Assembly (NCBI RefSeq): GCF_055900595.2
Contig: NZ_CM148325.1
Strand: one strand, 5' to 3'
DNA: 64,000 nucleotides
The position numbers are program-made. Positions 13,520 to 16,500 of this stretch are shown one piece after another. Position 1 is the first letter of the stretch; every line of letters starts with the position of its first letter.

Positions 13520-16500
13520 TAAATAAAACAGGAGGCGAAGGTGCCTCCCGTTTTATTTTGTGCACTCAGTATCTACTGAATGAATACGGTTTCAGACATC
13601 GGCACCATACGAAGTAAAGTGTACTGTAAGCTGATTGCAGGCTAGCGTATCCTGATTAGTAAAAGCACACTAAAGGAATAGCTTGATGCAACTTACCAAC
13701 GAAGAACAAGTACAGATTGCTCGTATAAAAGAAAAAATCCCACGCATTGCCGCACTGGATCCTGAATGTAAGTTATTCGGTTCTGAAGGTTGGAAATATC
13801 AATGGCCGAAGCCTGCCAGCGAGGCGGAAATAGCTTCCTGGGAGAAAAAACATAGCGTCACTTTGCCACGGGAATATCGAATTTTTCTTCGCTATATCGC
13901 TAATGGCGGTCCGGCACATGCCTACGGTCTTGAATCTTTAGGCGGTACAGATATTTATGGCGATATAACAAAAGAAAGCCCTGTACCGCTTTATATGACG
14001 CAGCAGGATGTTGATGTGTTGAATGCTGGCCGTACAGAAGATGATGAAGAATATAGTTTTTTTGACGGCGCATTGACCATTCTCACCCTGGGATGTACTT
14101 ATGATATTTGCCTGGTGGTGACGGGGCAGTATCGCGGAAGGTTAATGCTGACTGATGGTGATGAAGATTATCCGTTTGATTTTATATATGATAAAAATTT
14201 CCTCAACTGGTATGAACGCTGGCTGGACGATTTTATTGCTGGCATGAGTATGAAGGGTTTCGATAGAAGTTTGCCAGGAACGCAAATTCAACTGCGTGAG
14301 TGGTTTTTAACTGAGAAAATCCCGGATTTACGTAGATCCATTTTATTCTCGCTATGCCGTTTTCCACAGATAGAACCCGAAACATTTGCCCTTTGGGAAC
14401 ATGTTTGCCACACAGAGAATGATAAAGAATTGTGTGAAGAGGCATTCATAAGATTACGCCAAAAAAAAGTTTCTTGTGCTGCAGATATTTTTCGACTCTA
14501 TTTTACAATGCCAGATGAATTACGTGATATTGCTATTAAAGATCTCCGTTTTGCCTGTAGAGATAGTGTGGTGAATATTGAGGATTATATTCATTCACTG
14601 TTAATAATAATGCCTGAACTTGACGATGACACTCTATCCTCAGCTGTCTTTGCTATACGAGAAACAGAGTATAATAAATATGATACTTTTCTGCCGCTTC
14701 TCGAACGTATCACTGATGACCGTCAGCAAACATTATTGTGGGCGATGAGTAAGGCGCCTGATTTCAATGAAAGCCGAGGATTCATTGAGTTGGTATTACC
14801 GCTTTTTGCATCATCAAAGATGGAGAATGTAAGGAAGGCTATTTTGTTGCTCATTGAAGTTAAAGATAATCGTATTCCACCATTGGTTGATGAAGCTGCA
14901 ACTCGTTTCCCTGAACTGACCATTTTACGAGAAAACTACTATCTCAGGACGTGGGGACATAAGCCATAAATTAATGGTTCAGAAATGATCTAACGCGGAG
15001 AAAAATATGATCAGGGAACATATTCAGCAAGCGATAAATAATAGGTTAGCCTTTGATGGCCCATTCAATGTTGTTCCTGAACCTGCAAGCACTGCGTTTG
15101 ATAGCCGGATCCCGACATTGAAAAACGGTGTCTGGCAGAAGGCCAGCCCTATGTTGCAGGCGCGTTTTGCACATTGTGGACGTTGGTTAAGCGCTACACA
15201 TGGAAGCTGGCTAAGTATAAGTGACATGGAAACGCTTTGGCAGGAACACATAGAAGATACGTTTCTTGATGAAATCAAAATGAATGCTGTAGCTTCAAGT
15301 GATAATTGGGATAACCATGCCTTGGGACTATTTCGTTCTCATCGCCTGTCACTTTTTGCCGGTAGTGATTACAGTTATGAAATGGTTTTTCTCCTTTGGC
15401 TAGATAGTACCGTTGAGCCAGAGGTCTGGGTTTATGACTGCAATGGGGAATCACGTTATAAAGATCTTAATGATTACCTGAATGCATATATTAATGATGA
15501 CGTAAGCGCCTGTGAGTGCTCCTGGCGAGTAGAATGAATAGCCCCCCTTGCCCCTTTGATCCACAAACCGCACATTACCTCGGCACAGTGCAAATCCACT
15601 ACACCCAAACCGCCTTCAACGCTGCCGTTAAGCATTATACCTGTTACATTAAAAAGCGTTTTAAAGGGTTTAAATGGGGAATCCGAACCGCTGGCTTATT
15701 GGCTATACTGCCCATGATCCCACAATGGTTGAAACCTTCTCATGACTTTAAACTCAACGCAATCAGTACGTTAATTCTTCTATTAATGTTGCCACTCCTC
15801 TTATCAATGTTCCTGTTAATCAGCAGAAGAATTAACGATTTTAAGTCAAAAACAAAGCAAGTTACTTTTACGAAACCCGTGCGTTATGCGTTTTATTTCG
15901 AGGGGATTGTTTTTTATGAATCTCATCAGCAGGGCATACTTCGCTGGGAAGATTTTTATAGCATTGAGTATGAAGAAGATTATTTGTGGCTTTTTCTGCA
16001 TTTACCGAAGAGTTGTCCCAGAGAAGCGACGAAAGCGTTTTGCGATATTTTCATTCCCACCAGTGCGATAAAAGCGCAGCCTGAACTGGATACGTTTTTT
16101 CGTGAAACACGCCACTCGCTGGATTATCTGTTTGTCCCGTTTAATTCTGACAGAAAATAACATATCCCCCGTATCTGGTGAAACGGGGGATTTCGTCGCT
16201 TAACTTATCGGATTACAGTTTTGGACCAGCCGCTACCAGCGCGGCACCCGCAGGGGTGTCGGTGTATTTATCGAAGTTGTCGATAAACAGTTTCGCCAGC
16301 GTTTCAGCTTTTTCCTGCCACTGTTCCGGAGAAGCGTAGGTGTTACGCGGATCGAGGATCTTAGTGTCTACGCCCGGCAGTTCAGTCGGGATCGCTAAAT
16401 TAAACATCGGCAGAGTGAAGGTTTCTGCGTTATCCAGCGAACCGTTGAGGATAGCGTCGATAATGGCGCGGGTATCTTTAATGGAGATACGTTTGCCAGT

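Follow-up and report, generated by a model that had tools for sequence, protein, structure and literature searches.

A divergent YcxB-type membrane protein in a rare, putative polyimmunity islet between envZ and pckA of Escherichia coli

Introduction

In heterogeneous polyimmunity loci, SUKH proteins and HEAT repeats are listed among the immunity classes and fusions between immunity domains are frequent (Zhang et al., 2012, PMC3482391). Related elements are orphan cdiA-CT/cdiI modules (PMC3150448) and SAIDI-1, an orphan immunity islet that is found at yegQ of Salmonella Typhi and hence at a different locus from the one considered here (PMC7400221). Here, we focus on gene C, the last of three genes (A, B, and C) that lie between envZ and pckA in a stretch of 64,000 nucleotides (nt) of DNA (NCBI RefSeq assembly GCF_055900595.2, contig NZ_CM148325.1), which is called the window in the following. 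C encodes a membrane protein with two transmembrane (TM) helices and is a divergent new member of a known, uncharacterized family in a known kind of element, the orphan immunity islet. The explanation that accounts best for the data, to which we assign a probability of about 0.45, is that a YcxB-type C resides in a polyimmunity islet, is coupled to B and acts autonomously as an immunity-type binder.

The family in question is the YcxB-like family (PF14317), which is named after B. subtilis YcxB. Its members resemble C in size (~160–220 amino acids, aa) and in layout, with an N-terminal segment, two TM helices, a beta-rich domain and a final helix. A search for functional literature on ‘YcxB’ and ‘PF14317’ returned nothing. 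Bacterial PH (bPH) membrane proteins such as B. subtilis YdbS and YdbT have TM helices, a cytoplasmic PH-like beta-sandwich and a C-terminal helix in succession, an arrangement that C would share according to its model. YdbST reportedly aids resistance to antimicrobials of other Bacilli, which would parallel a protective role of C.

Gene C in the envZ-pckA Islet

The window is a segment of the Escherichia coli chromosome with the gene order tex/yhgF, greB, ompR, envZ, three extra open reading frames (ORFs) on the plus strand, pckA on the minus strand, yhgE, hslO, and hslR. RefSeq labels the three ORFs ‘SMI1/KNR4 family protein’ (A), ‘hypothetical protein’ (B), and ‘hypothetical protein’ (C). 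The islet that holds them has a guanine-cytosine (GC) content of 38–44% compared with 52–58% in the flanks.

13557..16212, no strand assigned: low-GC accessory islet that replaces the ~45-bp envZ-pckA spacer (GC content, alignment with the empty site)
15534..16160, plus strand: gene C, 208-aa two-TM membrane protein of the YcxB family (RefSeq coding sequence with the same start)

Alignment with the empty site places the divergence from just past the envZ terminator hairpin up to the pckA stop codon. When positions 13400–16400 were compared with 5,426 complete E. coli genomes by megablast, the flanks matched essentially all genomes and the inserted genes A-B-C were present in 18 of 5,426, every time between envZ and pckA. 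Gene C occurs in 19 E. coli genomes, in all of them on the chromosome at the envZ-pckA site and in all of them (19/19) accompanied there by SUKH or HEAT-like genes. A phage or plasmid origin of the islet was rejected, as tblastn gave no match in plasmid and phage collections and there was no PHROG hit.

Mapping by tblastn together with junction sequences reveals six architectures, and C is found in every one. Among close relatives, all C homologs with genomic context are located between envZ and pckA.

A-B-C: E. coli, E. albertii
HEAT-like-B-C: Escherichia sp. MOD1-EC7003, one metagenome contig
HEAT-like gene fused in frame to C, B deleted: E. coli A30, E. whittamii, Escherichia sp. E4742
Interrupted HEAT-C fusion: Salmonella enterica
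Truncated B remnant and intact C: Enterobacteriaceae bacterium G50
C fused at its C-terminus to a HEAT-like domain: L010 type, 8 contigs, C only 43% identical

In the L010 type, a 365-aa ORF (L010/L011 6001–7098) encodes C (43% identity) followed by the HEAT-like domain (69% identity), which is the reverse of the order in A30 and E. whittamii, and this fusion is the only gene between envZ and pckA. In Salmonella enterica (L006 3740–5060), two orphan modules in tandem interrupt the HEAT-C ORF precisely after codon H14 of C and before codon Y15. Each is composed of a 3′ fragment of a cdiA-CT-like ORF and cdiI_5, and an indel has truncated the second cdiI_5. Salmonella C restarts on an internal methionine of this truncated second cdiI_5 (MPFGLKPVMTQ/YLG..., the slash marking the junction), and its N-terminal tail would thus be recycled immunity-gene sequence. 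A ‘TA’ microhomology is possible at both module junctions. Across lineages, the first ~13 residues of C differ (59% column identity compared with 86–90% elsewhere), suggesting that the 5′ end of C is a cassette junction.

C is intact beside the truncated B of G50 and is found without B in A30, Salmonella and the L010 type. It is the only constant, pckA-proximal element of the islet, and its upstream partners are exchangeable immunity cassettes (SUKH genes here, HEAT-like and CdiI_5 genes elsewhere). Distant C relatives with long contigs are solitary between core genes, located after secDF, after pyrF-yciH, or next to a YjhX toxin gene. This constancy at the locus and the solitary state of the distant relatives indicate that C probably works autonomously. 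The preliminary description of this locus had proposed that C completes a three-part module. This view finds no support, since C is constant, A and B are exchangeable, B homologs occur at four loci that contain no C-like ORF and distant C relatives stand alone. As judged from its gene content, the islet appears to be a toxin-less polyimmunity locus that is rare and occurs in Escherichia and some other Enterobacteriaceae.

Layout, Fold, and Family of C

Kyte-Doolittle (KD) hydropathy of C shows a strong hydrophobic segment at residues ~76–97 (KD 2.6–3.0) and a weaker one at residues 50–66 (KD 1.24), which includes two prolines and one arginine. Two hydrophobic segments are present in register in 17/17 C-family members, among which TM1 of the window allele is the weakest. 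Across 17 relatives, lysine and arginine (K/R) residues number 3–7 and 1–6 in the outer flanks and 0–2 in the loop, and the window C has 5, 2, and 5 in the N-flank, loop and C-flank, respectively. The K/R-rich outer flanks and the K/R-poor loop indicate a predicted N-in/C-in topology of the hairpin with both ends in the cytoplasm.

An AlphaFold (AF2) model of C built on 13 homologs (predicted local distance difference test, pLDDT, 74; predicted template modeling score, pTM, 0.67) contains a strand at residues 15–21, a helix at 25–42, long helices at 44–66 and 76–108, five strands at 116–155, a short helix, a strand at 172–175 and a C-terminal helix at 183–200. Hydropathy in 17/17 relatives and the two long AF2 helices bear out the earlier proposal of two TM helices followed by a ~100-aa soluble domain. 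The predicted parts of C are as follows.

15573..15665, plus strand: C residues 14–44, cytoplasmic N-terminal strand and basic helix (YLGTVQIHYT...YIKKRFK; AF2, 86% column identity)
15666..15824, plus strand: C residues 45–97, TM hairpin with TM1 at ~45–66, a short loop and TM2 at ~76–97 (hydropathy, K/R, AF2)
15870..16133, plus strand: C residues 113–200, cytoplasmic beta-sheet core and C-terminal helix, YcxB/PH-like (AF2, invariant columns)

The seven strands and the capping helix of the model are consistent with a PH-like domain that is split by the TM hairpin, with its first strand preceding the hairpin. Strand 15–21 would be the first strand of this split PH-like domain and would pair with the sheet. 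The soluble domain is the most conserved part of C and almost invariant among close homologs. Within residues 113–200, Y118, Y121, E129-x-H131-Q132-x-G134, W138-x-D140-F141, and I174-P175 are conserved as invariant columns of two alignments (A1 and A2).

A Foldseek search against AFDB50 returned 965 matches at E ≤ 0.001. All 50 of the matches listed are annotated as YcxB family or YcxB-like, with alignments spanning 177–226 columns and E-values from 6.3e-33 to 1.2e-5, and they include a 96%-identical E. coli UniProt entry. The resemblance to YcxB-like proteins noted earlier is therefore upheld by all 50 Foldseek matches listed, with the Pfam model itself being marginal (E = 0.57). We scanned 17 relatives, which are tied to the window C by profile E-values of 1e-15 to 3e-5, against Pfam, and among the families of soluble domains YcxB alone matched two or more of them. 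NCBIfam gave no meaningful match to C. Matches of C to MASE8, MdoH, and other membrane families were rejected because they are marginal, cover the TM region only and are inconsistent between relatives.

The sequence family of C is small. Among 5.8 billion clusters, a word-indexed search yielded 18 C matches, and those with a named source are all from Enterobacteriaceae. An exhaustive profile search of 1.84 billion representatives gave 15 clusters at E ≤ 1e-3, and a genome-wide scan with the narrower alignment A1 retrieved only three Escherichia species representatives. In distant C relatives (~20% identity, 200–223 aa), Y118, Y121, Q132, and I174 are invariant and the motif reads E-x-H/Y-Q-x-G...W-x-D-F...I-I-P. 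Based on the modeled fold, we conclude that C most probably represents a divergent subfamily of the YcxB family below the Pfam threshold.

The pairwise ratio of nonsynonymous to synonymous substitution rates (dN/dS) of C is 0.24–0.47 across seven lineages, and C is a real gene under selection. Because dN/dS is 0.20 in the N-segment and 0.25 in the linker and PH core compared with 0.42 in the TM hairpin, the soluble domain is the constrained part of C and the hairpin behaves like an anchor.

Translational Coupling Between B and C

Gene B ends in GTA GAA TGA with the TGA at 15535–15537, and the ATG of C is found at 15534–15536.

15534..15537, plus strand: ATGA stop/start overlap of B with C (sequence; kept in E. 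albertii)

This overlap had been noted in the preliminary description and is present in the sequence as stated; RefSeq calls the same ATG and E. albertii conserves it. The same description had set the start of the feature at 15516, which is a GTG, the first such codon after an in-frame stop. Its Shine-Dalgarno (SD) pairing amounts to −0.6 kcal/mol and E. albertii has TCG in its place. GTG 15516 was rejected as the start of C because it lacks SD pairing and is not conserved in E. albertii, whereas the ATG is conserved and used by RefSeq/PGAP. Hence, C begins at 15534.

A 4-nt ATGA overlap is a very common bacterial arrangement and unremarkable alone. Here, the overlap gains weight because it is retained in E. 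albertii although C is 75% identical there, because B-stop and C-start are separated by 3–4 nt in the HEAT-like-B-C (L008) and G50 architectures, and because the SD sequence of C is at background level in the window and strong where C stands alone. SD/anti-SD pairing energies are −5.6 kcal/mol for A, −6.6 kcal/mol for B, and −3.0 kcal/mol for C (−2.7 kcal/mol for E. albertii C), compared with a mean of −2.4 kcal/mol for random 20-mers from the window. As the sole gene at the locus (L010), C has a strong SD sequence of −7.7 kcal/mol. B and C thus show the features expected of a coupled pair: the two genes overlap or are at most 4 nt apart, the second gene has a weak SD sequence and the arrangement is conserved. 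Since C appears to have no usable ribosome-binding site of its own in the A-B-C architecture, it is probably translated by termination-reinitiation from B. The earlier suggestion of translational coupling therefore stands in so far as the overlap is probably used, given the background-level SD sequence of C and the conservation in E. albertii. The stoichiometric co-expression read into it is not supported, as A and B are exchangeable. The coupling probably reflects operon compaction that resulted from cassette insertion at the first ~14 codons of C, and it does not point to an obligate B-C complex.

The SUKH-Type Genes A and B

Both genes upstream of C are related to SUKH immunity proteins.

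13686..14969, plus strand: gene A, 427 aa, N-terminal SUKH (SMI1/KNR4) domain and ~230-aa C-terminal half (Pfam, RefSeq name)
15007..15537, plus strand: gene B, 176 aa, predicted SUKH-fold polymorphic-toxin immunity protein outside Pfam coverage

Residues 44–170 of A match the Pfam families SMI1_KNR4 (E = 2.7e-6) and SUKH_6 (E = 3.4e-5). The C-terminal half of A (residues ~200–427; 14280–14966) has no relatives outside gene A in 5.8 billion clusters, and BLASTP gave no alignment between this half and the HEAT-like partner of other lineages.

Gene B is covered by no model of Pfam, NCBIfam, PADLOC, or PHROG. Compared with C, it has homologs in a wider range of bacteria, namely in Pectobacterium, Dickeya, Brenneria, Lonsdalea, Corticimicrobacter, and Caulobacter. 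In Pectobacterium parmentieri (L015 3710–8525), a 56%-identical B homolog starts 20 nt past a 1,423-aa PAAR-Rhs protein in an Hcp-VgrG-DcrB-Rhs cluster of a type VI secretion system (T6SS), which is the canonical position of a cognate immunity gene. The C-terminal ~170-aa toxin tip of this Rhs protein has no Pfam match. The 20-nt spacer between the Rhs gene and the B homolog (L015 7975–8000) holds adjacent homopolymers, T8 followed by G8 (AAAGTTTTTTTTGGGGGGGGTATG), which could form a slippage-prone tract with an effect on expression of the immunity gene.

On metagenome contigs, the B homolog is embedded in arrays of Imm19, SUKH, Imm21, Imm32, and Imm17 genes, and a tyrosine recombinase lies beside the array in the one metagenome contig that extends upstream. 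These arrays resemble the acquired interbacterial defense (AID) clusters of Bacteroidales (bioRxiv 10.1101/471110). In Corticimicrobacter, the B homolog adjoins a SUKH_6 gene. In the four B-homolog loci outside the islet, hmmsearch detected no C-like ORF. The SUKH fold and the homolog directly behind a T6SS Rhs toxin in Pectobacterium argue for B as an immunity gene, and it is probably a mobile polymorphic-toxin immunity cassette that works without C. B would then represent a SUKH-fold immunity family missed by Pfam and NCBIfam and, together with the Pectobacterium Rhs tip, a candidate uncharacterized toxin/immunity pair.

The envZ-pckA Junction

As a control that the constancy of C is no search artifact, E. 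coli was also queried with the flanks only. The flanks are joined in 5,398 of 5,425 E. coli genomes. In the other 27 genomes, they are unjoined at ≥80% coverage, as would fit a larger insert, and 19 of these 27 carry C; one of the ~8 remaining unjoined genomes was inspected and has ISVsa5 at the junction. A RelE/ParE-NadS toxin-antitoxin (TA) pair, NadS being a helix-turn-helix protein, occupies the envZ-pckA site in 12 of 60 sampled E. coli genomes, and the islet and the RelE/NadS pair occur together in E. albertii (L005 6101–6773; L021 7051–7720). In Escherichia, conflict genes thus have a small hotspot at the junction of the convergent envZ and pckA.

Between C and the TA pair of E. albertii (L005 5728–6002; L021 6677–6954), there are duplicated fragments of pckA (aa 321–352, 81% identity) and envZ (aa 371–430, 97–98% identity), which look like scars of a past rearrangement. 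A protein in which the N-terminus of C is joined to a HATPase_c fragment (P0017) may have a similar origin. Furthermore, an ORF of >400 aa without Pfam match lies 5′ of gene A in E. albertii CP117637 (L005 1–2650). The next ~600 bp, including a 79-aa ORF, contain a diverged repeat (40–53% identity) of its last ~200 residues, a pattern reminiscent of the orphan C-terminal cassettes of polymorphic proteins.

Two hairpins are found near the ends of the islet in the window.

13531..13548, plus strand: envZ terminator hairpin kept upstream of the islet (terminator scan: GGAGGCGAAGGTGCCTCC followed by a T-run; identical at the empty site)
16164..16191, no strand assigned: 9-bp GC-rich hairpin 3′ of C (fold energies −18.3 kcal/mol on the plus strand and −20.4 kcal/mol on the minus strand)

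The hairpin 3′ of C has a z-score of about −3.6 on both strands, with 0/200 shuffles equally stable, and is also present in the A30 variant islet. Because its T-rich tail is found on the minus strand only, it is most likely the pckA terminator traveling with the islet. No plus-strand sigma-70-like site was found between the envZ terminator and gene A, and promoter-like sites overall are at shuffle level. An Rfam scan of the region for structured RNA gave nothing at E ≤ 0.1. The envZ-pckA islet holds no recombinase and, according to ORF and RefSeq annotation, no cyclase gene.

Possible Functions of C

As in an immunity array, C has SUKH (A, B), CdiI_5, and HEAT-like genes as adjacent or coupled partners, and its fusions to the HEAT-like domain come in two orders. 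Its exclusive company at the locus, its rarity, its low GC content and its association and fusion with a HEAT-like domain across deep divergence lead us to favor, at slightly less than an even chance, the reading that C acts alone as an immunity-type membrane-tethered binding protein. The PH-like domain, composed of the N-terminal strand and helix and of the C-terminal beta-sheet and helix, would be held against the cytoplasmic face of the inner membrane with the hairpin serving as an anchor only. A putative cytoplasmic pocket (Y118, Y121, E129, H131, Q132, W138, D140) might then bind a toxin or ligand where the membrane faces the cytoplasm, such as the domain of an imported toxin that emerges from, or acts on, the inner membrane.

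Several points weigh against an immunity-type C. Unlike B, it has no Rhs- or contact-dependent inhibition (CDI)-type toxin next to it in any C-family context examined, its distant relatives are found among housekeeping genes without neighbors from conflict systems, and the case for an immunity role comes from its association with immunity genes at a single locus. TM1 of the window allele is weakly hydrophobic (KD 1.24). The Pfam YcxB model (PF14317) matches C only marginally (E = 0.57, residues 123–156) and reaches E ≤ 1e-3 in 1/17 and E ≤ 0.1 in 5/17 relatives. The AF2 model is of moderate confidence, and the clustering of conserved residues in a pocket as well as the pairing of the N-terminal strand with the sheet are putative. 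Moreover, the promoter scan identified no promoter for the islet, so that its expression is hypothetical.

C might instead be a bystander with a function unrelated to toxin immunity, e.g., niche-specific membrane or ligand sensing, that happens to sit in a recombination-permissive spot between convergent core genes. Immunity cassettes, TA pairs and insertion sequence (IS) elements would accumulate beside it, and coupling and fusions would be by-products. As two readings of C, immunity-type binder and bystander are roughly equally likely; the bystander scenario spelled out in full appears rather improbable to us. It agrees with the general hotspot character of the envZ-pckA site (RelE/NadS pair in 12/60 sampled genomes, ISVsa5 in one checked genome), with the coexistence of islet, TA pair and envZ and pckA fragments in E. 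albertii and with the Salmonella cdiA-CT′/cdiI modules that interrupt the C reading frame near its 5′ end. The distant relatives that are single genes between core genes without immunity neighbors, and the lack of an Rhs/CDI-type toxin next to the C homologs examined, also point in this direction. Yet 19/19 E. coli genomes with C at the site also hold SUKH or HEAT-like genes, with one of the ~8 other unjoined genomes inspected. The HEAT-like domain stays with C over deep divergence (C 43% identical) and in two gene orders, which goes beyond random accretion, and the rarity, low GC content and relaxed dN/dS of C resemble those of conflict-system genes. The tight coupling and the fusions could also reflect a real complex in which C is a scaffold that brings soluble partners (the HEAT-like protein and possibly A or B) to the inner membrane, on whose cytoplasmic side they would meet imported toxins at the point of entry. 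PH-like domains are classic protein- and ligand-binding modules and would suit such a role, the tight B/C coupling is conserved, and HEAT-like domains are fused to C in both orders (N-terminal in A30, E. whittamii, and E4742; C-terminal in the 8 L010-type contigs). Against a scaffold, B homologs lie next to an Rhs toxin and in Imm arrays where no C-like ORF is present, and C persists with a degraded B and without a HEAT-like gene in G50. The window lacks the HEAT-like gene, and the C-terminal half of A has no similarity to it. Fusions of unrelated immunity domains are common in polyimmunity loci and imply no cooperation (PMC3482391), and the A30-type fusion appears to have arisen simply by deletion of B. 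The anchor suggested in the preliminary description is thus retained as a minority possibility, and the full scaffold scenario is unlikely.

The same description had considered C as an effector, and this proposal fares worst. In this scenario, C would kill by depolarizing or permeabilizing the membrane within a TA-like or abortive-infection module, with A and/or B as antidote or sensor. The small size and the two TM helices of C, its position as the last gene of an operon, TA pairs at the same site and one weak PADLOC match of the window C to the Pycsar effector PycTM (E = 0.0097) are compatible with this idea. Yet several lineages retain an intact C in the absence of A or B, and the distant relatives of C are solitary, so that C is not always linked to a candidate antidote or sensor. 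The TM hairpin is the least constrained region of C, the PycTM match recurs in 0/10 relatives and there are no PHROG hits. A and B fall into toxin-immunity families that are directed at secreted toxins of the Rhs/CDI type and not at membrane peptides. We consider a toxic C very improbable. An assignment of C to Pycsar PycTM in particular was rejected as TM-composition noise, given the lone match, its absence from 10 relatives and the lack of a cyclase in the islet.

If the immunity-type reading is extended to the family, YcxB-type split-PH membrane proteins might form a so far unrecognized class of immunity or adaptor proteins that are anchored in the inner membrane. Imported interbacterial toxins would be intercepted at the cytoplasmic face by the C subfamily, either alone or together with its persistent HEAT-like partner. 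The envZ-pckA islet would serve as a compact platform for expression, with new immunity cassettes being spliced in at the first codons of C and translated by coupling. This extension is speculative and we regard it as unlikely in its full scope.

Comparison With Known Systems

YcxB-like proteins are widespread in the AlphaFold database (965 fold matches at E ≤ 0.001), and we found no function assigned to them; the locus supplies a genomic association. It ties the YcxB family to a persistent HEAT-like partner, to SUKH and CdiI cassettes and to natural fusions, and it offers a tractable E. coli system for studying protection from interbacterial toxins. The main value lies in a functional lead for YcxB-like proteins and in gene B as a candidate unannotated SUKH-fold immunity family. 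These are incremental annotations that generate hypotheses and leave current concepts unchanged.

The envZ-pckA islet resembles described orphan and acquired immunity islets (SAIDI-1, PMC7400221; Bacteroidales AID clusters, bioRxiv 10.1101/471110; cdiA-CT/cdiI modules, PMC3150448; polyimmunity loci, PMC3482391) in its low GC content, its strain-specificity and its SUKH, HEAT-like, and CdiI genes. It likewise has no cognate toxin, a mosaic content, swapped cassettes and fused members. In contrast to these islets, it is much smaller (2–4 genes), occupies another locus, carries no recombinase and always ends in a YcxB-type membrane gene, which is not a recognized immunity family. Compared with the YcxB family, C is bound to a single chromosomal site and keeps company with immunity cassettes, an association unreported for the family, and forms a very small divergent subfamily with an invariant motif of its own, E-x-H-Q-x-G...W-x-D-F...I-(I/F)-P.

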